A stretch of 63,765 nt of DNA, filler included, from an uncultured virus (IMG/VR IMGVR_UViG_2049941000_000602) (taxonomy: Duplodnaviria; Heunggongvirae; Uroviricota; Caudoviricetes). It is 12 parts of one record of this genome, joined end to end, with 100 filler letters (N's around TTAATTAATTAA, not from the genome) between each part and the next. Parts side by side here need not be neighbours in the genome. Positions count along the whole stretch, not along the records: positions 43,698 to 56,293 come from IMGVR_UViG_2049941000_000602; 11 more parts are not named here. One strand, written 5' to 3'. A model generated the notes under the pieces. It was not told the origin of the DNA. It did no database searches and saw only the letters and a list, made by a program, of their open reading frames with translations. The position numbers were made by a program, and so were the translations under genes. This document shows, piece after piece, positions 1,296-62,004 of this stretch; the first letter of the stretch is position 1; each line of letters begins with the position of its first letter.

Positions 1296-1514
1296 CTATT
1301 TGTACCTGAACTTTATCCTTCCCCTGCCCAGGTCGTATGGTCCTATCTCGACTCTCACCCTGTCGTCGACGGTCACCTTGATGTTGCACCTGGTCATCTT
1401 CCCGCACGGCCTGGCCAGGACCTCGAAGTCGTTGTCCAGCCTTACCAGGAAGAACCCGTTCCCCCGTGCCTCGGCCACGGTGCCGTCTACTTCAACCCCG
1501 CATTCCTTAGCCAT
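1296..1514 (-). CDS. infA: Translation initiation factor IF-1
   Basis: 72 aa, MAKE..VEVDGTVAEA.GNGFF.VRLDN..EVLA...GKM....IKV...DRVRVEI.PYDL.RGRI.FRYK matches IF-1 throughout. Confidence 0.95.
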   Translation of the reverse strand: MAKECGVEVDGTVAEARGNGFFLVRLDNDFEVLARPCGKMTRCNIKVTVDDRVRVEIGPYDLGRGRIKFRYK

Positions 1515-9336: not shown

Positions 9337-10109
9337 TTATATTGGTTGAGGAATCGCTTCGGGTGCCTTCTGCTGGTTGGCGGCCATGTTCGCGAGAGCC
9401 AGCTGCTCCTTCATGGCGACGGGGTCTCCCCGGGTGAGGATGGTCGCCTTCATCTCTTCCTTGAACTCGCTCGCGGCGAACGTGATTTCCAGGGCGTCCG
9501 TGAAGGTGAGGTCCTCGTGCTTGCCCGGGAACCAGTTGGAGTCCATGAAGTAGACGCACCAGTAAAGGCTGGTCACGTGGTCGTCGTGGTTTCCGCCGGA
9601 GCCGCCCCAGGTGAACTGGTTCAGCTTGGTGAAGCTCATGAGTTCGTTGATTGTGTTCTCGTCCTTCAGCTTCAGGTACCCGCGCTGGACATACAGCTTG
9701 AGCAGCATGACGGCCCTGGTCTTGACCGGGTTCGTCGAGTAGATGCCGCGGAAATACTGGTCATAGTTGATAAGGTTGTCGTACCCGAGGTTCTCGAACA
9801 TCGTCTTGTGTGCAGTCATGCCGGAACCACCGTTGTACTCGATGGTCAGCGGCGGGTTCCCGTACATCCTGAGGATGCTTGCGGACATGGCGCAGAAGTC
9901 CTCGACCGTTACCTCGTTGGACGACAATACGAGTACCTGCTCGGCACGGCAGGAAGTCTTTGCTAGCAAAATCTGCAGGACGTGGGAGTCCTGGCGCATG
10001 CCGAACCCGGTATCGAGTGCGGCAACGTATGTCCAGTCTTCCTTTTCCATTACTTGCTTGGGAATGGGAGGGGCGAAAACGCGGAGCGAGTATTCCTTGG
10101 GAACTCCCG
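9337..10109 (-). CDS. terL: Terminase large subunit, C-terminal nuclease domain (T4 gp17-like)
   Basis: YVAALDTGFG..QD, TIEYNGGSG, G..ST..VK, DENTINELMSF, GNHDDHVTSLYW acidic RNase H-fold motifs. Confidence 0.88.
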
Positions 10110-10321
10110 NNNNNNNNNNACTGCGCTTGAGGGAACGTCCTACCGGGTTCATGCACTGCTCGTCGGGAGTGACGTTGTTCGCGTCGGAAGTGCCGGTCGT
10201 GCCGGCGGCTTCGGTACTTTCCGCGTTGGCGAGGTTCTCGGCTGCCGTCTGTAGGTCCGCGGTGGCGTCCGCGACCTGCTCGTTGGCCTGGCCGTTCGCC
10301 TGCATTGCACTNNNNNNNNNN

Positions 10322-11245
10322 CGTGTTCGGCACGGTGGCGCTGCTTGACTTCGCCGAGCTGCTTGACTTGGCGTTTGCCTTGTTCACCCCGGCCTTCTGC
10401 TGTTCGGCCTTCTGTGCCGCCTGCCTCTGCTGTTGCTGGTAGAGCGGGGTGGGTGCCTTGGTCGCGTACGGGGCCGAGCCCGCGGTGGCGGCATTGGCTG
10501 CCCCGAATCCGATTGCGGCGGCTGCGGCGGCGTTCTTCCAGAAGCTCTCCATGAGTTCTTCCGATTCGAACACGGGGGCCTTCTTCACGTAGTATACGGC
10601 CTCGTTAGCGGCCGGTGCCTGCTGCTTCTGTTGCTGCTGGCCTCCCTTCTTCGCCTGGGCCGACTTGATGGCCTTCTTGAGAATCAGGTCGGCGAGCTTG
10701 GTGCATACGCCCTGCATGGACTTCTCCGGGAGCGGGGCGTAATTCTTGTTCTTCATGTAGGCCTTGACCGCATGCGCTACAGTTTTCAGGAGCGGGGCCT
10801 CGATGTCCTTGACCTTGGGTTCTCCCGGGAACTGCTCGGCCATTGCCTGGCCGACCCGGGTGAAGATGTTGTCCCCGCCATCGGCGGTGAGTTCCTTGAG
10901 CAGGTTCTCCGGGTTGATTGCGCCCGGTGCGCCGTCCTCCTTGTTGACTTCGTCGGCCGACGGGGCGTCGCCGGGGTTCCCGGTGATGTCGTCGAGGTCG
11001 CTGTCGCCGTCGAGGTCGGTAAGTTCCTCGTCTTCGCCTTCCTTTTCGCCTTCGCCTTCCTTGCCGGAATCGTCTGAACCTTCACCGTCGGACGAGTCCT
11101 CGGACTTGTCCTCCTTGCCGGTGTCCTCCTTGTCGGTATCCTCGTTCGTGCCTTCGGCGAGGTCGTCGTCGTTGCCTACGCCTTCCAGCAGGAAATAGTC
11201 CTTCAGCCTGTCGAATTCGCTCTCGAATGTAAGGTAGTCGCGCAT
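10322..11245 (-). CDS. Acidic low-complexity putative internal head/virion protein (partial)
   Basis: D/E-rich tract, FES/LMES/LLEG motifs, late promoter motif upstream. Confidence 0.55.
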
Positions 11246-11275
11246 CTTGTGCCCCTGACGCAAAATTTTTATAAA

Positions 11276-11311
11276 AGTTTATATCGGCATTGGGGATTTT
11301 TGCTATATTTG
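11276..11311. promoter_or_regulatory. Back-to-back promoters: TATAAACT (minus) and TTGCTATATTTG (plus)
   Basis: AGTTTATA 11276..11283 and TTGCTATATTTG 11300..11311 in a divergent intergenic region. Confidence 0.7.
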
Positions 11312-43697: not shown

Positions 43698-44346
43698 GTC
43701 GGTGCATCCAGTGATGTAGGCCTTGCGGACGTCCGCGGCCATCTTTGGCGTTGGCCTTTCCGGGGCTTCCGGGTATTCCGTCTCGTCGAACCGGTGGGCC
43801 CTAGCGATGAGCATCTGGTTCTCCCGGAGGAACTTGGCCCACGGGTAGTAGCCGTGCCTGCGGATGAAGTTGGCGATTCCGGCCATTGCCTCCCTGAACG
43901 CGCCGAGGTTGTCCTCGCGGGCCTCGAATATCGGGGGGAGTTCCACTGTTACCGTCTCGCTCTCGTCGAAGTCCGTCATGATTCCCTCAACCAGGACGCG
44001 GTTGTCGCCGCTGAAGAACTTCTGCAGGCACTCGTGCATGTTCCTGCGGCGTGCGTCGTCCCTGGCGAGCGGGTTCACCCGCATCTTGTCCAGCACCTTG
44101 CCGAGCTCGATTGCCTTCTTGAACTGTTCCGAGCCGACGATTTCGTTGAAGTCCTTGATTCCGTAGTTCGACAGGTAGTACTGCACGAGCTCGCAGTTCT
44201 GGTAGAACCTGTTGAGGTCCCTGTCCCAGCAGTCCGGCTCGAAAATCATCGCCTTCCTGACGGTGGCGTAGTCGAACGTGGGCTTCTTCGGGGGTTCCTG
44301 GATTTTGGCCATGTCGTGCGAGGTGGCCCGCTTGGCCTTGTCGATT
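43698..44346 (-). CDS. Hypothetical putative virion protein (C-terminal part; allele at 46069..46208)
   Basis: Open frame over 200 aa; near-identical ending FLRENQMLIARAHRFD..AYITGCT seen twice. Confidence 0.55.
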
Positions 44347-44356
44347 NNNNNNNNNN

Positions 44357-45229
44357 CCAGCCGGGGAAGTGCGTCTTGTTCACGTAGTCCCTCGCCTCGT
44401 CCTCGGGGGAATCCGGGGATGACAGGTGCTGCAGCTCGGGACGCTCGTACCTGAGGATGATATCCTTGATGAGCCTGTGCCTGATGATGTCCTCAACGTC
44501 GAGCTCGACGAACCCGACCCTCCGGACGCCCTTCAGGAGGTCCATGGCGTGACTGAAGCCCGACGTCACCCTGGACGGCAGGTCGCACTGCTGGCTGTCG
44601 CCGCAGATTACCATCTTCGAATTCCGGCCGAGCCTGGTAAGCATCGTCTTCATCTGCGAGATGGTCACGTTCTGGAACTCGTCGCAGACGATGAAGGAGT
44701 TGGCGAGAGTCGAACCGCGGATGTAGGCCAGCGGGCACACCTGCACGAGGTCGTAGAAGGACTTGCGCTCGCGGGCGTCCTCGTCCTTCCTGACTGCGCG
44801 GAGGCGCTTCTTTTCCTTGGCGGACAGCATCTCCGGCATCTGCTCCGGCTCGGTCAGCTTCTCGTCGCGTCCGCCCTTGATGAGCGATATCGCGTCGTAC
44901 AGCGGCTGCATGTAGGGGGCCACCTTCTCGTCCATGGTTCCCGGGAGGAAGCCGAGCTCCTCGCCAGACGTGACTACGGGGCGGGTCAGGACCAGCCTCT
45001 CGTACACCCCGGCGTCGATACCGGCTATGCCAAGCCAGGTGGCTATGGCCGTCTTGCCGGTTCCCGAGGGACCGTTCACGAAGATGATGTCGTTTGCTTG
45101 AATCGCGTCGACTAGGGCCTGCTGTCCCTGTGTCCTTGCGTAGATTGGCTTCCCCTTCCTGGTACGGATGATTTCCGTTCCGCGGAAGCCCTGGTCGTAT
45201 TCATCGGCTCGCGCCGTCTGCTTGCACAT
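44357..45229 (-). CDS. phoH: PhoH family ATPase
   Basis: T.GQ, GPSGTGKT, LTRPVV.SGEELGFLPG...EKV.PY, PLAYIRGSTL, DEFQN, LTRLG, GDSQQCDL, DIIRH. Confidence 0.95.
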
Positions 45230-45384
45230 GAGCAATCCTTATGATTGTGGTCACTTTGCGGTTTTGTCGCGGGGAACTGCCCCGTTACCAAATTTACTTC
45301 AAGTTTAGAGGATTTGGACCGGAAACTCGAAAAATTCCGGGATTCCGCATATTCCAACTTGGAATAAAATTCTTTTGCGTCGCG

Positions 45385-45501: not shown

Positions 45502-46065
45502 ATGGACGACACATACGATGGCGAAGATTTCGCCCAGGAGAGTAGTGCGGAGCGAATAATCCGGCTTACGGGAGAAATCTCCGAGGAAACTTCGGAGAAA
45601 TTCATCCTTAATCTTCACAGAGTCGCAAAAATCCCGGGCGAAATCATCGTCATCGTGTCCAGCGAAGGCGGGGACATAGAGGAGGGCCTCCGCATAATCG
45701 ACGCCATACAGATTGCCAAGGCAAACGGGTGCCCCGTAAAAACGGTCACTTCAGGCAAGGCCTATTCGATGGGTGCGTACATCGCCTGCACCGGGGACAC
45801 CCGGACAATCTACCCGCATTCCAGGCTCATGTTCCACGGGAGCCGATTCGAGGGCACCGACGATGGCCAGGTCCTGACCGTGGGCGAGCTGCAGAAGATG
45901 CAAGGCGAGCTGTCCCTCTCCAACGACGTATTCCGCGAGATTCTTTCCGGGCTCGGCCTCGATTCCGCCATGGTGGAACGCATGCTCTCCGGCGAAGTAT
46001 ACGTAAATGCCAAGGAAGCAATCTCCCTTGGCATTATGAATTCCATAGAAACAGAGGTAATCTAG
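45502..46065 (+). CDS. clpP: ClpP-like protease subunit
   Basis: RII.LTGEI, SSEGGD..EG..I.DAI, GKAYSMG (Ser), SRLMFH (His), A.EA..LG. Confidence 0.88.
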   Translation: MDDTYDGEDFAQESSAERIIRLTGEISEETSEKFILNLHRVAKIPGEIIVIVSSEGGDIEEGLRIIDAIQIAKANGCPVKTVTSGKAYSMGAYIACTGDTRTIYPHSRLMFHGSRFEGTDDGQVLTVGELQKMQGELSLSNDVFREILSGLGLDSAMVERMLSGEVYVNAKEAISLGIMNSIETEVI

Positions 46066-46443: not shown

Positions 46444-47832
46444 GTGAAACTACTTACAAAAGACCAGCTTACCGACGACCAGAAAGAGGCACTGCAGTAC
46501 ATGCACGACTTCATCGAGGGCCCGAACCGGGAGATGGTCCTTAGGGGACCTGCAGGTACCGGCAAGACCTCGCTAGTGAACGTGCTCCTGGCCGAGCTGG
46601 ACAAGGCCAAGTTCTACGAGTACATCTGCACGGCGACGACCAACAAGGCCGTCGAAGTCATCTCCAGGAACACCGGGAGGGAATTCGACCGCACCATCTA
46701 CTCCCTTGAGGGCCTCACGGTGAAGGACGAGGACGACAGGGGTGCAAAGCTCGTCCGCGAGCCCGGCGCCCAGTCCAAGCTGAAGGACTACGACCTCATC
46801 ATCGTCGACGAGGCGTCGATGGTTCCACTGCAACTCATCCAGGAAATCGAGTACGACCTTCTCGAGCACAGTCGTCCGAAGGTAATCTACATCGGCGACC
46901 CGTGCCAGCTTCCCCCTGTTTCCGATAAGCTGCTCGGCATGAGCGAGTCCATGATATTCCAGCTGCCCCTGTGGTTCGAACTGACGAAGGTCATGAGGAC
47001 CGCGCTCGACAACCCTATCCTGAAGCTCGTCACCGGGATGCGCGAGGACATGACCTCGGAAGGCGACCGGTTCGAGTACGTCGACTCCCTGACCGAGGAG
47101 GGTGACGGGGTCAGGTTCTACGACAACCGTAAAAAATTCATGGACACCATGTACGAATGCTTTCTGTCCGAGGAATACAAGAAGGACACCGACCACTGCA
47201 TGGCGGTGGCCTGGCGGAACATTTCAGTCGACGCAATAAACGCGGCGGTCAGGAAGCGTATCTACCCGGACATGGAGGCTGAATATGCCGAGGGCGAGGA
47301 AGTCCGTACGGCGATAGCCTTCCGCAGGCCGGTCCCGGGGAAGAAGGACGTGTTCTACCCGGTGTATTCCATGGAGGAGCGCCTGAAGATACTGGAAGTC
47401 GAGGAGGATACCGACCCCCGGTATGAACTGGAGTGCTACAAGGTTACCGTCTGCAACTTCCGCGCCCTGCCTAAGAACCGCACGACCACAATCGCGTTCA
47501 TCCTGAAGAAGATTTCCATCGAGAAGTACAACATCCTGCTGACCGAGAAGGCCGCTGAGTGCAAGGAGCGAGAGAAGGAGCCGGGCCATGACGGGAAGGG
47601 CCACCTGTACACCAAGAAGGAGGCCTGGGCCCCGTACAACGACCTCCGCAGGTACTACCTGTGGGTTGATTACATCTACGCGATGACAACGCACAAGGCC
47701 CAGGGCACAACTGTGCAGAATGTCTTCGTCGTGGAACGCGACATGAACCTGAACCAGGACGTAATCGAACGGAACAAGCTGAAGTACACGGCGTTCACCC
47801 GTGCGGCCAAGAGACTCCATGTCCTTATTTAA
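46444..47832 (+). CDS. SF1B DNA helicase, Dda/RecD-like
   Basis: GPAGTGKT, TATTNKA, IIVDEASM, IGDPCQLPPV, LTKVMR, YAMTTHKAQGTT, YTAFTRA. Confidence 0.92.
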   Translation: MKLLTKDQLTDDQKEALQYMHDFIEGPNREMVLRGPAGTGKTSLVNVLLAELDKAKFYEYICTATTNKAVEVISRNTGREFDRTIYSLEGLTVKDEDDRGAKLVREPGAQSKLKDYDLIIVDEASMVPLQLIQEIEYDLLEHSRPKVIYIGDPCQLPPVSDKLLGMSESMIFQLPLWFELTKVMRTALDNPILKLVTGMREDMTSEGDRFEYVDSLTEEGDGVRFYDNRKKFMDTMYECFLSEEYKKDTDHCMAVAWRNISVDAINAAVRKRIYPDMEAEYAEGEEVRTAIAFRRPVPGKKDVFYPVYSMEERLKILEVEEDTDPRYELECYKVTVCNFRALPKNRTTTIAFILKKISIEKYNILLTEKAAECKEREKEPGHDGKGHLYTKKEAWAPYNDLRRYYLWVDYIYAMTTHKAQGTTVQNVFVVERDMNLNQDVIERNKLKYTAFTRAAKRLHVLI

Positions 47833-48252: not shown

Positions 48253-48592
48253 CGAGACTGAAATCTTCACGCGGACATATGACGACGGCAAGGTCGTGGA
48301 CAGTATGCTGAACCCTGACCGGCTCGATGCTCTCTACGAGAAAATACGGGATATCCACAAGAAGGAATTCCCGGACTGGTCCATACCGCAAGTGATACAG
48401 CACATCATATTCTGGGACAGGGCGTTCCGGTGGGAATGGAGAACGGACGAACAGTTCCTCAAGATGCTGCAGGACTATGCGGACGAATTACACAAGGAAC
48501 AGGACGAACTTTTCGAGGAATGTCTCGGTAAATCCGACCCCGAGAAACCTATACTGACGCAGGAGAAGAAACCATGTACGGAAAATCCCTAG
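48245..48592 (+). CDS. Hypothetical phage protein
   Basis: M.NPDRLD.....I...H....PDW...Q.I pattern; overlapping start/stop with neighbours. Confidence 0.65.
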   Translation: MADETEIFTRTYDDGKVVDSMLNPDRLDALYEKIRDIHKKEFPDWSIPQVIQHIIFWDRAFRWEWRTDEQFLKMLQDYADELHKEQDELFEECLGKSDPEKPILTQEKKPCTENP

Positions 48593-49982
48593 CACATATC
48601 GAGAAAATCAAGGCAATCCATCCAATCGAGGGTGCCGACAACATCGAGCGAGTGACGGTGCTCGACTGGAACCTTGTCGCCAAGAAGGGCGAGTTCCAGG
48701 TTGGCGACCTTGCCCTCTATGTCGAAATCGGTGCCATTCTCCCGGACGGCCTGGAGGATGCCGACCGTAGCCGCGTGAAGGAACTGGAGAAGATTATCTC
48801 CGAGCACAAGAAGTACGCCAACGCCTGCGCCAAGGCCAAGGAGAAGGGCAAGGAACCACCCGCCCCCAATACCGAGCTCATGCCGCAGGAAGACGCCGAG
48901 AAGGAAATGGCCGAAATCCAGGCGAAATCCAAGTACCCGTACTTCGAGTTCCTCCGTCCCAGGAAGTTCAAGATTAAGACGATGAACCTCACCAAGTTCA
49001 ACGTGATTTCCCAGGGCATCCTGTTCAAGACCGACGTAATTGGCCTGAATCCGTCCGAGGTAAAGCTCGGTGCGGACTTCACCGAACGATTCGCCATCAC
49101 CGAGGAGGTAGAGGACGAGGAAGAGGCCGGCCTTACATCCAAGCCGCTCTGGGGCCCGTTCAAGTTCTTCGACAAGAAGCTGATGCGCTACGCCTGGTAC
49201 CGCAACTGGAAGAAGTCCCGCGCCGAGAAGGCCGAGTGGTTCCCGTGGTTCCCGGCAAAGTCCGACGAGACCAACGCACAGAAGATTTACTCGGAACTCC
49301 TGGAGAAGTACGGCGACCGTATATGGGTGGCCACCGAGAAACTGGAAGGCCAGTCCATCACAATCTGCTCGCGCGAGGTCACCGGGTTCTTCGGCAAGAA
49401 GAAAAAGAAGATTTACGTCGCTTCCCGTACCCGCAACCTTCCCTGGAAGGGCTGCTCCACGATGAAGTTCTGGAAGACCGTGAAGAAGCACGGCTACGAC
49501 GATAAGCTGAAGGCCGTTCCCGGTGAATGGTTCATCCGCGGCGAGCATGTCGGCGACGGCATCCAGAAGAACATCTACGAGCTCAACGGGAACGATATCA
49601 GGTTCTACGACTTCATGCCGTTCGACAAGGAAGCCGGCAAGTTCGTGAAGAAGCTCAACTACCAGGAAAGCCTCGTGTTCTCCGAGAAGTACGGGTTCCC
49701 GTACGTCCCGGTCATCGACGACAACTTCAAGCTCCCGGCCGACGTGCAGGACATGCTCCGCATNNNNNNNNNNAGTTCTCCGAGAAGTACGGGTTCCCGT
49801 ACGTCCCGGTAATCGACGACAACTTCAAGCTCCCGGCCGACGTGCAGGACATGCTCCGCATTTCCACCGGGAAGACCGTCTTCGGCAACAACCTCAAGCA
49901 TCTCCGCGAAGGGCTGGTCCTCCGTCTCAAGGACGACTACTCCGTATCCTTCAAGGCGAAATCTCCGGACTACAGCATATGA
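48574..49982 (+). CDS. RNA ligase, DRB0094/Rnl2-like
   Basis: LAHIEKI..I.PIEGADNIE...V..W..V.KKGEF, ISQG, motif I TEKLEGQS, V.SR, RGE..G.GIQKN.Y, FYD, REGLV, SFKA.S..Y; short duplication across gap at 49764. Confidence 0.92.
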
Positions 49983-50335: not shown

Positions 50336-50347
50336 TTGCTATATTTG
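50336..50347 (+). promoter_or_regulatory. Putative early/host-type promoter TTGCTATATTTG directly after a terminator hairpin
   Basis: Contains TAnnTTTG; hairpin CGGGAC-N5-GTCCCG plus T tract at 50311..50337. Confidence 0.7.
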
Positions 50348-50387: not shown

Positions 50388-51206
50388 ATGTCCATTAAAG
50401 TAAGAACGAAAGTCATCACCCCGGCAATCGCCGAGGCCATGCTCCGCACCTCCGCCGAACTCGGCGCAATCAACCGCAAGCTCAACAACAGGCACGTCGA
50501 GCTCTACGCCAACGAAATCCGCTCCAACCGCTGGAAGCTCAACGGCGACGCAATCCGCCTAGACGACGACGGCAGAATCCTCGACGGCCAGCACCGCCTC
50601 CATGCATGCGTACTCGCCGGAATCCCCTTCACGACCATCGTGATGACCGGCGTGGACGCCAACACGTTCGACACCATCGACTGCGGCCGCGTCCGCACTA
50701 CCTCCCAGGTACTCCAGATGGCCGACGTCAAGTACAATTCGCTGGTATCCAGTATCATCCGCGGCGCTTCCGAAATCCGTTCAGTCGGCCACACCGACAT
50801 GAAGGAGAAGCGCCTCTCCAACACGGCGGCACTCGCCGAATACAACACCAATGCCGAGCTCTACAACCGCGCAGCCGCAATCAGCTCGTCCGCGGTCAAC
50901 GAATCCCACGCCGTCCCGCCGAAGCTCGTCGGCTCCGTGTACTACTACCTAGTCCACGACCTCAAGCAGGACGAGGAGAAGGTCGAGAAGTTCGTCCGCG
51001 AAATGGTCTCGTTCGACAGCAGCTCCAGCGCCATCATCGACAAGCTCCGCAAGTGGAACCTCGCCAACCGCGCTGTCAAGGTGTCCGACCGCACCCGTCT
51101 CGGTTTCATCATCCTCACCTGGAACGCCTGGATTAGCGGCTCCCGCAAGGCACCGCGCTTCTCCGAGGCCAACATCGAGGAAATGCCAGTATTCATCGGA
51201 AAATAA
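50388..51206 (+). CDS. ParB/Srx-like (DGQHR) phage protein
   Basis: ITP..A..ML, NRKL, YA.......W.LNG..I.....G..LDGQHRL.A, FDTID.G..RT. Confidence 0.8.
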   Translation: MSIKVRTKVITPAIAEAMLRTSAELGAINRKLNNRHVELYANEIRSNRWKLNGDAIRLDDDGRILDGQHRLHACVLAGIPFTTIVMTGVDANTFDTIDCGRVRTTSQVLQMADVKYNSLVSSIIRGASEIRSVGHTDMKEKRLSNTAALAEYNTNAELYNRAAAISSSAVNESHAVPPKLVGSVYYYLVHDLKQDEEKVEKFVREMVSFDSSSSAIIDKLRKWNLANRAVKVSDRTRLGFIILTWNAWISGSRKAPRFSEANIEEMPVFIGK

Positions 51207-51214
51207 GGAAACAG

Positions 51215-51904
51215 ATGCGCAACAATTTCTTCATCCAGTCCCCGTACGTCCAGCTCCTGGACGAAAACCGCAAGTCCCTCGGCACGATGCCCTCGGGAAA
51301 GGCCAAGGACATCGCGAACAACAGGGACATCCTGCTCGTCCTCGTAGACGGCAGGGCAAACCCGCCGGTGTACGCACTCGGCACGGGCCCCAAGGACGAA
51401 ATCATGACCTCCACGGTCCGACTCATGGACAGCAACCGGGAGAACCTCGGCGTCATGAGCGCGGCCGACGCCAGGAAGCTGGCCGAGGAACGCGGCGAGG
51501 ACATCATCGTCCTCAACCCGAAGGCCGACCCGAACGTCTGCATGCTCGGCGACAGGAAGAAGTACGAATACGAACGCAAGAAGGCAGCCAAGGAAAACGA
51601 GAAGAAGCAGCGCTCCGCCGCCAAGTCGAACGAGCTGAAGGAGCTCAAGCTCCCCGCCGACACCTCCGATTCCTCCAAGGGAGACCGCGTAAGGCTGTTC
51701 TCCCGCGCCGCCGAATTCGTGGCCGAGGGGCATCCGGTGCGCCTCAGCGTCCGTTTCCGCGGTCGAATGATGGCCCATTCGTCCGACGTAATGCAGAGAC
51801 TCTACGAGGAGGCCGTCGCGGCAATCCCCGGCGCGAACATCGCCGAACCGTCCGCAGCAGGCAACATCTTCGCGATGCTCTGCACGCCAAGCAAGAAGAA
51901 ATAG
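51215..51904 (+). CDS. infC: Translation initiation factor IF-3 with tandem N-terminal domains
   Basis: Two N/E.I....V.L.D.N...LG.M....A...A......L..V...A.P.V units, KYEYE.KK linker, LKELKL, F..EGH.V...VRFRGR. Confidence 0.88.
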   Translation: MRNNFFIQSPYVQLLDENRKSLGTMPSGKAKDIANNRDILLVLVDGRANPPVYALGTGPKDEIMTSTVRLMDSNRENLGVMSAADARKLAEERGEDIIVLNPKADPNVCMLGDRKKYEYERKKAAKENEKKQRSAAKSNELKELKLPADTSDSSKGDRVRLFSRAAEFVAEGHPVRLSVRFRGRMMAHSSDVMQRLYEEAVAAIPGANIAEPSAAGNIFAMLCTPSKKK

Positions 51905-51924
51905 CTATTACCTCTGTTGATAAC

Positions 51925-51955
51925 AAGGGCCCCGGGAGAAATCCCGGGGCCCTTT
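51925..51955. terminator. Terminator hairpin
   Basis: AAGGGCCCCGGGA-GAAA-TCCCGGGGCCCTT. Confidence 0.85.
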
Positions 51956-51991
51956 CTGGTGTTTTCGTGAACCTGGCTACTNNNNNNNNNN

Positions 51992-54900
51992 CCGAAGATT
52001 GTCATGTCGTCGTCCTTCTTGACGGTCCTGTCACCCTTGACCTGTTCCTTGTAGTCGCAACGGTGCTTCGCCACCGACTTGCTGAACAGCTTGGTGATGT
52101 AGCTGGAAGTGCCGAGGGACTTCCCGTTCTTCGCCTTGACGTTCCCGTCGCGGTCGGCGAGCCAGTCGACGACCATCTGGACGGTACCGGCGTCGGTAGC
52201 CTTGGCCTGGTCGTTTAGCGTGTACTCGACAGTGAAGTCGTTGACGTAGTTCGCCTGTGTGGTGTAAACCCAAAGGTGCATCGTATACTTCACGTCGTAC
52301 AGCGGGATGTTGAGCCCGTTCTTGGCGTAGTCGGCCTTGAACTCGTCGGTGCAGTGCTCCTCGACGTACTTGTCCACCGGGATTCCCTTGGTGGATGCCC
52401 CAACGATGTTCCCGCGGTCGTCCACCGGAATCATGCCGTTCTTGACGATGTCGTCCAACGTGGCCAGGCCTCCCGTGGCGGAAACGCTGGGAAGCGCGAT
52501 GTCCACCTTGAAGCCGACGCCGATGGTCTCCGGGAGCTTCCCGTCCTTCGGGTCGGTGAACTTCACCTTGACCGGGTTTTTCGGGTTGTAGTGGTGGCCG
52601 TCGCCGTAGTATTCCTCGACCTTGTCGCGGTCAATCTCGGTTACCGGGTGGATGATGGAAACCTCGATGTCCTTGGCTTCCTTCATGATTACCAGTACCG
52701 TGTCGATGGCGACGTTGCCGGCCTTGTCCACGTAGCGGCGGATGACCATGTTCGGGCCCTTCTCGAGCCTCTGGAGGGTGAGGGTGTCCTGGACTTCCCC
52801 GTTGACCGTCCACTTTACCGGGATGGCGTTTGTATGGAAGATGGTGCCCTTCACGGGGTCGAGAATCTCGAGCTTGGGCGGGATGTCGTCGAAGACTATC
52901 GCCACCTCGGCGGATGCGCGGTTCCCGAAGTCGTCGGTATAGTCGTAGCGGACCGTATAGCCGATGTTGCCTTCCTCGTTCTTCACTACCTTCTTCTTGT
53001 CGTCCAGTTCGTAGGAAACTGTCGTGCAGGAATCCACATTGTATGAAACGCGGTAGTTGCCGATGCGTTCGCCGGTCATGCCGTCGGTCGTGTACGTGAT
53101 GGTCACGTCCTTGCCGCCTTCCTTGACCGTATAGGTTACGGTCTGCAGGGTATCTACCGGTTCCATCGTCTTGAGGTCGACAATCCTGGACAGGGTGACC
53201 TTGACGCCGTCGACCGTGACGACTTCCTTGACCTCCGCCTTGCCGTTGCCAATCGGGGTCACTTCCGCCTTGCTCTCGTCAATGATGTAGCTGTNNNNNN
53301 NNNNCCCTCGATTGTAATGTAGTCAATCATGGCGTCGGTGTTCTTGGCATTGGAGAGAATCACGACTGGCGGGACATCGTTGAAGATGAACACAACCTGG
53401 TCGCAGGAGGTCTTCCTCTCGTTGCACACCTTTACGGTCGTGTCCTTCCTGATGGTGACGCCCAGGGTGTCGAACACGCACTTGCCGGACTCGCAAATCC
53501 TGTAGTCGATAGTATGGTCCGGGACGTTGGTACGGACGGTGTCGCGCTTAGGCTCGCCGTCGACCTCGGTAATTTCCGTCTTTTCCGGGACATCCAGAAC
53601 CTTGATTACGACAGTAGCCGTATCGCTGAACTCGCCGTCGGTCACGATGACCTGGACTGTATCGCCGGCGGTCTTCTCGTAGTCGAACGGCTCCTTCACC
53701 GAGATTTCCCCGGTGGAGTCGATGGAATACCTGGCGGTGTCCGAGATGATGTAGGACGGCCTGGTATTGTCCTCGTCCCATGCTGGGACCTTGCAGCCGG
53801 TCTTCCCGGTGGCGTTCTCGGCCACGGTGCAGGTAGTATCCTTGACGTGGACGGGCTCGTTGATGTCACTTACCTTGACCGTGTAGGTCATGATGTCGGA
53901 AGCTCCGGCAGGGTCGCTGACGGTAACGGTCACCTTGACTTCCGGGGTCTTCTCGTAGTCGAGCGGGTCGGTGAGCTTGAGGACGCCGTTGGAGTCGATG
54001 GCGAATCCCGGTTCCAGAACCTTGAACGTCAGGGTATCCCTGTCGGGGTCGGTCGCCGTGATGATGCCGACGATGCAGTTCCCGCAGTTCTCCGGGACAG
54101 TGAGCGAGTCGTTCGGCTGGAGCACGGGAGGCTCGTTTCGGTTGATGACATTGACCACGACCTTCGCAGTATCGTAGAACTCGCCGTCCGTGACGATGAC
54201 TTCGACCGTGTCGGCCTTGGTATCGTCGTAGTTGTACGGGGTATTCAGCGTGAGGTTCCCGGTGGAGTCGATGGAATACTTCGCCGTGTCGGTAACGGAA
54301 TACTTCACCGGGGTCCTGTCCTCGTCGGATGCGGGGACCGTCCCGATTACCCCGGTCTTCCCCTCCTCGACGGCAAATGTCGTATCCGTGGCGTGGACGG
54401 GCTCGTTCACGTTGTCGACGACAATCTTGACCGTAGCGGTTGAGGTCTTGGTCCCGTCGGAAACCTTGACCGTAATCGTGGCGGTCTTTTCGGTCTCGTA
54501 GTCGAACGGAACGGTATTGGTAATTNNNNNNNNNNNNNNNNNNNNNNNNNNNNNNNNNNNNNNNNNNNNNNNNNNNNNNNNNNNNNNNNNNNNNNNNAGC
54601 TCGATTTCCTTCGGGTCCGTCTCGTAGTCGAACACCTTCGTGGCGTAGACCGTCCCGTCGGGGTTCACGGAGATTCCGTCGGCCGGGACGAGGACTTCCA
54701 GGGCGTTGTCGCGGAAGGAAGCCGGGATGTCCTGGTCTGTCCACTCAATCTTGCCGATTTTCGCGGGGACGGGGAGGTTCTCGCTGAACTCGACCTTCTC
54801 ACGACCATCNNNNNNNNNNNNNNNNNNNNNNNNNNNNNNNNNNNNNNNNNNNNNNNNNNNNNNNNNNNNNNNNNNNNNNNNNNNNNNNNNNNNNNNNNNN

Positions 54901-56293
54901 NNNNNNNNNNNNNNNNNNNNNNNNNNNNNNNNNNNNNNNNNNNNNNNNNNNNNNNNNNNNNNNNNNNNNNNNNNNNNNNNNNNNNNNNNNNNNNNNNNNN
55001 NNNNNNNNNNNNNNNNNNNNNNNNNNNNNNNNNNNNNNNNNNNNNNNNNNNNNNNNNNNNNNNNNNNNNNNNNNNNNNNNNNNNNNNNNNNNNNNNNNNN
55101 NNNNNNNNNNNNNNNNNNNNNNNNNNNNNNNNNNNNNNNNNNNNNNNNNNNNNNNNNNNNNNNNNNNNNNNNNNNNNNNNNNNNNNNNNNNNNNNNNNNN
55201 NNNNNNNNNNNNNNNNNNNNNNNNNNNNNNNNNNNNNNNNNNNNNNNNNNNNNNNNNNNNNNNNNNNNNNNNNNNNNNNNNNNNNNNNNNNNNNNNNNNN
55301 NNNNNNNNNNNNNNNNNNNNNNNNNNNNNNNNNNNNNNNNNNNNNNNNNNNNNNNNNNNCGTTGAGGTCGATTACGGATACCGGGATGTATCCCGTGACG
55401 GAATACCCGGCGGTGTCCTTGAGGGTGACCTTGATGGTATCCACCGGGGTAGTTTCGTAGTCTACCGGGGTAAGCAGGGTAAGCACGCCGGTGACGGAAT
55501 CCAGCGAGTAGCGGCCCGCGTATGCGGAATCCAGGACGAACCTGGTGGAGTCGGAGCCGTTCACAATCTTGATGTTGTCGACGACGCCGGTGTAGTTCTC
55601 CTTCTCGGAGTAAACGCCGGTGGAGTCGAACAGCGGGCGGGGGGTGTAGTCGGCGTCGATGATGCGGATTTTGAGTTCTCCGTCGGTCTTGTTGTTCGGG
55701 AGGACCGCGCCGGACTCGATGGAAATCTTCATGACCAGGTAGTCGGAGGGCTCGGTGATGGTGTCCTTCTTCACGTTGACCGTAATCGGGGTGGTCGGGA
55801 CCTTCTTGCCGGTCGGGATTACCACGGTCTTGGTCTCGGTGCCGCAGATGGGGAAGTCCGTCACCAGGTTGAAGTCGTCAACCGTCACGCCGTCGCGGAG
55901 GTCGAAGCAGTAGTTGAAGTATACGTCTACGGTGGCGGTGTCGCTCAGCTTGATTGGGATGACTACGGTGGAGTCGTTCTCGCGGAGGCCGCCGTCCTTG
56001 TTGAGTTCCGGGTCGATGTCGAGCGTATCAGGGTCGAACGGGACGAAGCGGAAGTTCTCGCCCTTGAAGTCGTCGCCGATTTCGAGCTGGTTGGCCAGGA
56101 GCTGCCCGGCGAAGTCCAGGTTGCACTTCAGGAAAATCTTGCCGGTAGTGATGAATGAACCCTGGATGGGCACGTTGTCGGTATTGTCGAACGTGATGTT
56201 GTTGTTGGAATAGAACATCACGTTGCCGCGGTACTGCTTCTGCGTCTGGATTTCATCGCCGTCCTCGGTCCTGTATATCACGTTGAACGTCGT
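51992..56293 (-). CDS. Large cadherin-repeat surface protein of Fibrobacter type (gapped, both ends missing)
   Basis: Repeated (L/F/V)DYE, D.NEP and A.D.D calcium motifs; Calx-beta/Ig-like segments; C-terminal ...WLAD.DG.VK..NG..LGT..YI.K... domain resembling Fibrobacter secreted proteins. Confidence 0.8.
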
Positions 56294-61986: not shown

Positions 61987-62004
61987 ATTTGCTATATTTG
62001 GGAC

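Follow-up and report, generated by a model that had tools for sequence, protein, structure and literature searches.

The open reading frame (ORF) at 51215..51904 of a 63,765-nucleotide stretch of DNA from an uncultured virus (IMG/VR IMGVR_UViG_2049941000_000602) encodes a homolog of bacterial translation initiation factor IF3 with two IF3_N domains. This whole stretch, 12 parts of one genome record joined by filler letters, is called the window here. In bacterial translation initiation IF3 is the main fidelity factor, and the contribution of its N-domain is still debated. Judged from sequence comparison, the arrangement of two N-domains followed by one C-domain (N-N-C) is a well-documented architectural variant of this factor. 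We consider it somewhat more probable than not, at roughly 50-60%, that the protein is a working phage IF3 in which the extra N-terminal domain (N1) would serve as an additional hold in the platform region of the 30S subunit, displacing host IF3 or retuning it. The layout of the gene is as follows (aa, amino acid positions; HMM, hidden Markov model).

51215..51904, plus strand: IF3 homolog gene, N1-N2-linker-C, 229 aa, ATG start, with two IF3_N matches, IF3_C, TIGR00168 and phrog_9787
51227..51385, plus strand: N1, an extra IF3_N-like core, beta-beta-alpha-beta-beta, without linker helix (aa 5-57; envelope of our own HMM, 5-56)
51386..51394, plus strand: N1-N2 connector G-P-K (aa 58-60, from the family alignment)
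51395..51553, plus strand: N2, a canonical IF3 N-domain core (aa 61-113; Pfam IF3_N and alignment with E. coli IF3)
51554..51634, plus strand: Lys-rich linker helix with the equivalent of E. coli Tyr75 (aa 114-140; helix 114-138 in the model)
51635..51901, plus strand: diverged IF3 C-domain, beta-alpha-beta-alpha-beta-beta, with the R-F-R-G-R strand retained (aa 141-229; IF3_C and the 1tig fold match)

In a Pfam scan of the whole protein, IF3_N was matched in two stretches with 93.5 bits, and IF3_C reached 29.1 bits, under its cut-off of 34.8. The protein was also cut in three and each piece was scanned separately. The results showed that aa 1-60 matched IF3_N with 35.3 bits (E = 1.3e-8; aa 6-53, profile positions 4-51 of 70) and aa 61-128 matched it with 65.3 bits (profile positions 3-70 of 70), both above the IF3_N cut-off of 26.9 bits, while aa 129-229 gave IF3_C at 31.6 bits (profile positions 2-61 of 86), again under its cut-off. 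NCBIfam TIGR00168, the infC equivalog, was matched by aa 61-228 with 110.3 bits against a cut-off of 60. Among the PHROGs, aa 60-217 matched phrog_9787, annotated as translation initiation factor (E = 1.6e-29, profile positions 7-158 of 168), and this profile leaves aa 1-59 uncovered. When N1 was compared with N2 by BLASTP, 18 of 54 residues were identical (33%) in an ungapped alignment with E = 1e-10.

Predicted folds gave the same picture. The AlphaFold model of the whole protein, made with 45 family members, had a mean predicted local distance difference test score (pLDDT) of 80 and a predicted template modelling score (pTM) of 0.41. In this model N1 consists of strands 11-15 and 21-26, helix 27-36 and strands 41-45 and 52-55, and N2 repeats the same order of elements (67-71, 77-82, 83-93, 96-101 and 107-112). 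They are followed by a helix at aa 114-138 and then by a C-domain of the order beta-alpha-beta-alpha-beta-beta. Using Foldseek against the PDB, full-length IF3 chains led the matches of the whole model (9a5a_B, E = 2.8e-15, and next 5lmn_X), and the isolated IF3 domains were matched with a template modelling (TM) score on target of 0.85 for 1tig (root-mean-square deviation, rmsd, 1.8 Å) and 0.75 for 1tif. N1 alone (aa 1-58, 14 family sequences) was modelled with a pLDDT of 88.9. Ranks 1-9 of its PDB matches were all IF3 N-domains, with 1tif as the best (TM 0.81 on query, rmsd 1.0 Å, 51 columns), and at rank 10 the TM score fell to 0.48.

The original prediction, made from the sequence alone, had described a gap-free gene with an ordinary ATG start, an N-N-linker-C layout and two well-diverged N-domain copies, and had expected two IF3_N hits from an hmmscan-type search. 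All of this was borne out. The two peptide stretches that it quoted are both present in the translation of 51215..51904. The search returned two IF3_N matches, each above the Pfam cut-off when scanned alone, plus the IF3_C match under its cut-off; a C-domain of IF3_C fold follows, with a helix between. The ORF is continuous over 229 aa, and the copies share 33% of their residues. Both copies score and fold as IF3_N, so the outcome that would have spoken against the prediction, a lone IF3_N match or fold, was not seen.

A protein word-index search returned 68 clusters, 64 of which (P0001-P0064, two of them partial) had two N cores by our own N-core HMM. Collection scans gave 28 N-N-C loci, 3 on viral contigs and 25 on metagenome contigs. 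The contigs with these loci were up to 398 kb long, and the longest contig in the protein index was 472 kb. In 28/28 loci the ATG stands at the same conserved position as in the window, in agreement with the start proposed earlier, and AAGGA or GAGG precedes it in most. The whole stretch was also spanned by contigs assembled from DNA runs of other studies, X4 (3011 bases, 8 differences) and X6 (5092 bases, 14 differences), with no indel. Since these independent assemblies cross the gene without an indel, it is not an assembly repeat. We also considered whether a shorter N-C form might be made from a conserved internal start, and rejected this since the family does not conserve the Met at residue 64. 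These results leave a practically negligible chance that the two domains are an artefact, whether through a repeat in the assembly, two fused genes or a misplaced start: the architecture recurs in 28 loci and 64 protein clusters, N1 and N2 are only 33% identical, the ATG position is kept with the upstream gene stopping 8 bases ahead of it, no internal start is conserved, and the assemblies agree.

We then turn to selection on N1. By the Nei-Gojobori method, the ratio of nonsynonymous to synonymous substitution (dN/dS) over 23 distinct coding sequences was 0.22 for N1, 0.24 for N2, 0.18 for the linker and 0.25 for the C-domain, and by this sequence measure purifying selection acts on N1 as strongly as on the rest of the protein. 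Over 45 sequences down to 50% identity, 12 columns of N1 were invariant (N3, F5, I7, G23, M25, G28, A30, N35, L41, P50, P51 and Y53) and 10 were nearly invariant, K29 and K31 among them. The mean majority fraction was 0.79 for N1 and 0.75 for N2. The conserved surface motifs of N1 are N3, F5 and I7, the G-K-A-K helix start, A-N and P-P-V-Y.

These numbers bear on the explanation that N1 is a functionless remnant of duplication or recombination, tolerated as an N-terminal extension. Such a remnant would suit a domain that has neither the tRNA-contact arginines nor the linker helix (profile positions 4-51 of 70), and unrelated N-terminal extensions occur on many bacterial IF3 proteins, including 30 long forms with a single IF3_N described below. 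We nevertheless regard it as improbable, since the dN/dS of N1 equals that of N2 and C, the 12 invariant and 10 nearly invariant columns persist at 50% identity, the majority fraction of N1 is as given above against the 0.75 of N2, and N1 has been retained in the distant proteins P0069 and P0070 despite their different connectors.

To place the architecture among known IF3 proteins, a profile of 45 N-N-C sequences was searched against 1.84 billion representative proteins, which gave 8760 matches at E <= 0.001; the best 150 of them were examined. Among these best 150 of 8760, the match began at profile position 1-5 only in P0050, P0069 (248 aa), P0070 (255 aa) and the fragment P0073, and P0050 is the representative of the window protein's own family. 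In the other 146 it began at position 35-74 (128 in one C-terminal fragment), nearly always at 53-67. A Pfam scan of 35 of the 150, picked by length and late match start, found two IF3_N stretches only in P0069, P0070 and P0073. Another 30 long forms (215-512 aa) among those scanned had one IF3_N each, and their extensions were unrelated or belonged to other families (pieces of Glt_symporter, Ribosomal_L6 and QRPTase_N), resembling run-ons of gene calls. Our own N-core HMM, run on 216 proteins, detected two cores in 67, all in the N-N-C family, a single core in 148 and no core in 1. Since N1 contributes some 20-35 bits to a match, we infer that an N-N-C protein from bacteria, if of ordinary similarity, would be expected to exceed 94 bits, the lowest score among the best 150, though a strongly diverged one could escape them. 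N-N-C as a common form of bacterial IF3 was thus left unsupported, with none outside the family in the best 150 of 8760.

Other collections agreed. Two scans of a collection with one genome per prokaryote species, one of them with the N1 alignment, found no member of the N-N-C family; the N1-alignment scan returned one 20-residue match in a Solirubrobacterales metagenome-assembled genome, which we regarded as insignificant. Deposited phage records gave 21 matches, each covering 56-77% of the query and none 80%, which started at residue 61-68 in 19, at 52 in two Atu_ph07 records and at 33 in H11. The sister proteins P0065, P0071, P0072 and P0074 are single-N IF3s of 167-196 aa with one IF3_N each. 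In the ESM Atlas the nearest clusters were single-N viral IF3s of 163-178 aa (score 0.87), which we take as a lead only. In P0069 and P0070 the N1-N2 connector is about 20 and about 35 residues longer and N1 is more diverged, showing that the N1-N2 spacing is not fixed. No paper on a doubled IF3 N-domain was found in the full-text literature, a search that covered main texts outside subscription journals. Taken together, the N-N-C form of IF3 is apparently an undescribed architecture, rare and confined to one family among the best 150 of 8760 matches. The earlier suggestion that it had not been described agrees with this (no paper found, and 4 of the best 150 representatives, all of one family). 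The contrary possibility, that N-N-C is common in IF3 of the host lineage, was addressed through the global search only, where nothing outside the family appeared among the best 150 of 8760.

The origin of N1 was examined in a tree of 66 N-domain cores over 53 columns, which is weakly resolved. All 12 sampled N1 copies formed one group (support 99/91), which gives N1 a single origin, within this phage IF3 lineage. The group adjoins the single N-domain of P0072, a 167-aa sister IF3 carrying the same linker and C-domain motifs as the N-N-C lineage, and not its own N2, and the N2 copies fall among canonical N-domains. The gene had been predicted to carry a tandemly duplicated N-domain. The second IF3_N stands, and tandem origin becomes just one option: N1 may have come from tandem duplication and divergence or from the joining of parts of two related phage genes.

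To compare functional residues, key positions were mapped through the alignments with E. coli IF3 and between N1 and N2, and were counted over the 45 family sequences. N2, linker and C-domain align along the whole length with E. coli and Thermus IF3 (E = 1e-19 to 7e-17), the N2 alignment to E. coli IF3 running from residue 17 onward. The equivalent of R25 in N2 was R in 45/45, and linker Y119, the Tyr75 equivalent, was Y in 45/45. In the C-domain F181, G183 and R184 are invariant and R182 nearly so, and the R-F-R-G-R strand is retained. N1 had Arg at the R25 position in 0/45 (Q, L, T, E, M, V or A instead) and A at the R66 position in 35/45. The median net charge was +1 for N1 and -5 for N2.

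The N-domain of E. coli IF3 contacts the elbow of the initiator tRNA through R25 (invariant), Q33 (variable) and R66 (well conserved), and loss of these contacts relaxes start-codon and tRNA discrimination and slows the release of IF3 from the 30S subunit (PMC9723500). Structural work places the N-domain first on the platform near uS11 and later on the tRNA elbow, with Tyr75 contacting the platform (PMC5037330). The original prediction relied on the N-domain contacting initiator tRNA. This may hold for N2, which keeps the R25 equivalent in every sequence, and it probably fails for the extra copy. Without Arg at the R25 position and with a basic net charge, N1 probably has a new contact.

The reading also draws on a second factor of the same window.

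1296..1514, minus strand: IF1 homolog, 72 aa (PF01176, 58.9 bits against a cut-off of 30.2), about 50 kb from IF3 in the window

It shares 68% identity with its counterpart on the related phage contig G001. IF1 is also present on both G001 and G002, 45-63 kb from their IF3, and no IF1 match was found on G003, G004 or G005, of which G003 and G005 are fragments. By these homologies the source is an uncultured huge phage encoding both small 30S initiation factors, IF1 and IF3. IF1 sits beside the IF3 C-domain on the 30S subunit (PMC5037330). The presence of a phage IF1 fits an initiation module run by the phage.

For the phage protein we propose the following. N2, linker and C-domain would form a diverged but complete IF3, most likely binding the host 30S subunit as bacterial IF3 does, with the C-domain predicted near the P site, the linker on h23/h24, and N2 first on the platform and then on the initiator-tRNA elbow. 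N1 would be a re-purposed N-domain fold, probably not holding the tRNA elbow in the canonical way, and could act as a novel contact module, linked through 3 to about 35 residues with the N2 that follows the tRNA. Its partner may be RNA or a platform protein, as its conserved and more basic face suggests. Because N1 is attached at the N-terminus of an N2 bound to the platform or tRNA, the platform region is its most likely reach. Such an extra platform anchor could out-compete host IF3 and alter residence time or fidelity checks, and the phage IF3 would act jointly with the phage IF1. Here we infer 30S binding, the role of N1 and the competition with host IF3 from sequence comparison.

Several observations weigh against this proposal. 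The equivalent of R66 in N2 was M in 43/45. E. coli R99, R112 and R116, which we take to be important for 30S binding, align with P, F and E in the window protein, so that 30S binding could be weaker or different. IF3_C stays under Pfam's own cut-off in both scans. The pTM of 0.41 means that the placement of N1 relative to N2 is not readable from the model, and a platform anchor is one of several roles of N1 that fit. For expression of IF3 there is at most a weak hint, an RNA-library contig from X20 of 195 bases (depth 2.7, no differences) that matches 51206-51399, the ribosome site and all of N1, from 9 bases ahead of the ATG; the RNA library may contain DNA. The other RNA-library cover lies at 50388-50821 (X19) and 50451-50596 (X20), with depths of 2-3.2 overall and the remaining parts uncovered, a gap that carries no weight as evidence.

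Part of this would suit a host-shutoff decoy, which occupies the IF3 site, or grips a second site through N1, and blocks host initiation or subunit joining while phage mRNAs escape in another way. The C-domain is diverged and scores under the Pfam cut-off, and N2 has lost the R66 equivalent. In addition, E. coli IF3 that is unable to hold the tRNA stays longer on the 30S subunit and allows less subunit joining, as PMC9723500 reports, so changes in the N-domain can make IF3 a brake. We still hold a decoy to be unlikely: the R25 and Y75 equivalents are kept in 45/45 and the R-F-R-G-R strand is kept under selection, the linker has the lowest dN/dS of all parts (0.18), and a phage IF1 fits running initiation better than blocking it.

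Another possibility is that the protein has its role elsewhere than in the selection of start sites and secures the supply of subunits by splitting them or keeping them apart (anti-association or release from hibernation), or by ribosome rescue, so that 30S subunits are free late in infection; N1 would then add affinity for vacant or hibernating ribosomes. Anti-association is built into the IF3 C-domain, according to PMC9723500 and PMC5037330, and a jumbo-phage survey suggests rescue or support of phage translation as roles of phage IF3 (PMC7824862). The present data hold no specific pointer to this role, and the R25 equivalent in all 45 N2 copies argues that a tRNA-linked fidelity step still matters; we rate it as distinctly less probable than a decoy.

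A bolder form of the platform-anchor proposal is that N1 and N2 split between them the two sites, platform near uS11 and tRNA elbow, between which the single bacterial N-domain alternates. We think this doubtful. If it were true, N1 would stay anchored on the platform while N2 tracks the tRNA, giving a slow-leaving IF3 that displaces host IF3. Together with the phage IF1 it could make host ribosomes follow rules specific to the phage for start codon, leader type or tRNA, and it would be a natural experiment separating both roles of the IF3 N-domain.

The phage setting claimed by the original prediction was found in the window through its phage gene families, and on two related viral contigs through their terminase. 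These contigs, G001 (171 kb, CheckV completeness 41%) and G002 (116 kb, 31%), have a large terminase subunit above cut-off, and both carry double IF3_N. Around IF3 in the window lie the following genes.

44246-45235, minus strand: PhoH
45502-46065: ClpP-like protease
46444-47832: Dda-like helicase
48574-49812: RNA ligase

Elsewhere the window encodes NrdG, HD phosphohydrolases, a clamp-loader-like ATPase and a tail-fibre-like protein, and no tRNA gene was found in it. Compared with deposited phages, the Dda-like helicase reached at most 30% identity and IF1 at most 51%, so no close relative was seen there. On the minus strand, an ORF at 9337-11263 that is interrupted by unreadable bases scored 20.6 bits for Terminase_6C, under the cut-off of 22.6, and is possibly the large terminase subunit. 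Between about 14700 and 41000 the third-position G+C of the ORFs was 0.5-0.67 against 0.75-0.9 elsewhere; this region, where PHROG and Pfam matches are nearly absent and where ORFs of 939, 673 and 601 aa are found, may be a structural or recently acquired block.

Sequencing runs were also searched. Near-identical DNA was present at half or more of the sampled words in 18 runs, mostly with the label bovine gut metagenome. The 20 runs with near-identical DNA belong to 12 studies, and the window DNA may itself stem from one of the samples. Huge phages are reported to carry IF1 and IF3 (PMC7162821), a jumbo-phage survey lists IF3 in a few phages (PMC7824862), and the Jug gut phages have IF1 among their core genes (PMC12880540).

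The immediate neighbourhood of the IF3 gene contains these features.

50336..50347, plus strand: promoter-like motif TTGCTATATTTG, lying 40 bases ahead of the phrog_5931 gene
50388..51206, plus strand: upstream gene, phrog_5931, 272 aa (E = 1e-51), ending 8 bases before the IF3 ATG
51205..51209, plus strand: AAGGA, Shine-Dalgarno-like, 5 bases ahead of the ATG and overlapping the last two bases of the upstream TAA stop
51925..51954, plus strand: terminator-like hairpin of 13 pairs (10 G-C) with a T-rich tail, 21 bases past the IF3 stop
51802-56281, minus strand: large convergent cadherin-domain genes (PF00028, 79.7 bits)

The phrog_5931 gene stands directly upstream of IF3 in 22/28 N-N-C loci. 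It has no Pfam match and contains a D-G-Q-H-R-L motif, which in our view resembles ParB/sulfiredoxin-type domains. The 12-base motif TTGCTATATTTG has 7 exact copies in the window; when up to 2 mismatches are allowed the number is 10, where 2.1 would be expected. Its sites before genes are at 11300, 46405, 50336, 57524, 61461 (minus strand), 61495 and 61989. It was also found on loci L001, L002, L018 and L021-L030, at the same place in 7 related loci, and 26 bases ahead of the IF3 ATG in 5 loci without the phrog_5931 gene. With the motif and the hairpin bracketing it, IF3 seems to be the final gene in a short transcription unit of the phage, and it is probably on one transcript with the phrog_5931 gene from the promoter-like motif.

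The TAtaTTTG core of the motif resembles what we take to be the Bacteroidota -7 promoter element, TAnnTTTG, and by this analogy it could be a hint of a host from the Fibrobacterota-Bacteroidota group. The copy at 61989 ends 5 bases before an ATG and could yield a leaderless mRNA. When -10-like hexamers beside start codons were sought in the window, there were too few cases for a claim of leaderless mRNA. Shine-Dalgarno sequences were counted at 13/35 of crude, unrefined starts in the window, and this count was not used. The cadherin-domain genes were kept only in the closest relatives, L018-L020, and so look like a variable surface or adhesion module.

It had also been proposed that the gene is free of the autoregulation of infC. 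An ordinary ATG with AAGGA before it leaves no room for the start-codon route of this control, and to that extent the proposal stands; freedom from autoregulation in general goes further than the start codon and may or may not apply. The accompanying suggestion that the factor may shift the choice of start sites towards phage mRNAs is a hypothesis on its action.

A natural IF3 with two N-domains could be a tool to separate platform binding from tRNA binding, since N2 keeps the tRNA-contact Arg and N1 has a new conserved surface. It could also show how huge phages with their own IF1 and IF3 take over host ribosomes. The family is small and widespread, mostly in bovine gut runs, so any effect would bear on phage-host dynamics there.

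Finally, the protein was compared with known systems. Bacterial IF3 (infC, TIGR00168; PDB 5lmn chain X, 8jsg chain A, 1tif and 1tig) has the same N2-linker-C folds, and the phage protein retains its R-F-R-G-R strand as well as residues equivalent to R25 and Y75. The bacterial IF3_N domain corresponds to aa 61-128, with aa 6-53 as a second, shorter copy; the C-domain is recognized by TIGR00168 and the 1tig fold although its Pfam score is under the cut-off; and the long basic linker helix with Tyr75 is found at 114-138, with Y119 in 45/45. The phage protein differs from bacterial IF3 in its extra N-terminal IF3_N fold, N1, and in the Met at the R66 position of N2. E. coli infC uses an unusual non-AUG start codon for autoregulation, whereas the phage gene starts with ATG. 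Bacterial infC sits in an infC-rpmI-rplT neighbourhood, which the phage gene lacks; it has the phrog_5931 gene upstream and a convergent cadherin-like gene downstream.

The model also matched mitochondrial IF3 (PDB 6rw4 chain 8 and 6neq chain z, ranks 6 and 7), which consists of the core plus lineage-specific terminal additions. These extensions are short tails and are not known to form a second N-domain fold. The single-N IF3s of phages (phrog_9787; Agrobacterium phage Atu_ph07 and Sinorhizobium phage Phosso) are likewise phage-encoded IF3 homologs, and the sister single-N proteins P0065, P0071, P0072 and P0074 have the special C-domain and linker motifs of the N-N-C lineage. Those single-N proteins are about 160-200 aa long and none has N1, whereas the window protein has 229 aa and two N-domains. 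Phage IF3 itself is already known, and the doubled N-domain is apparently new.

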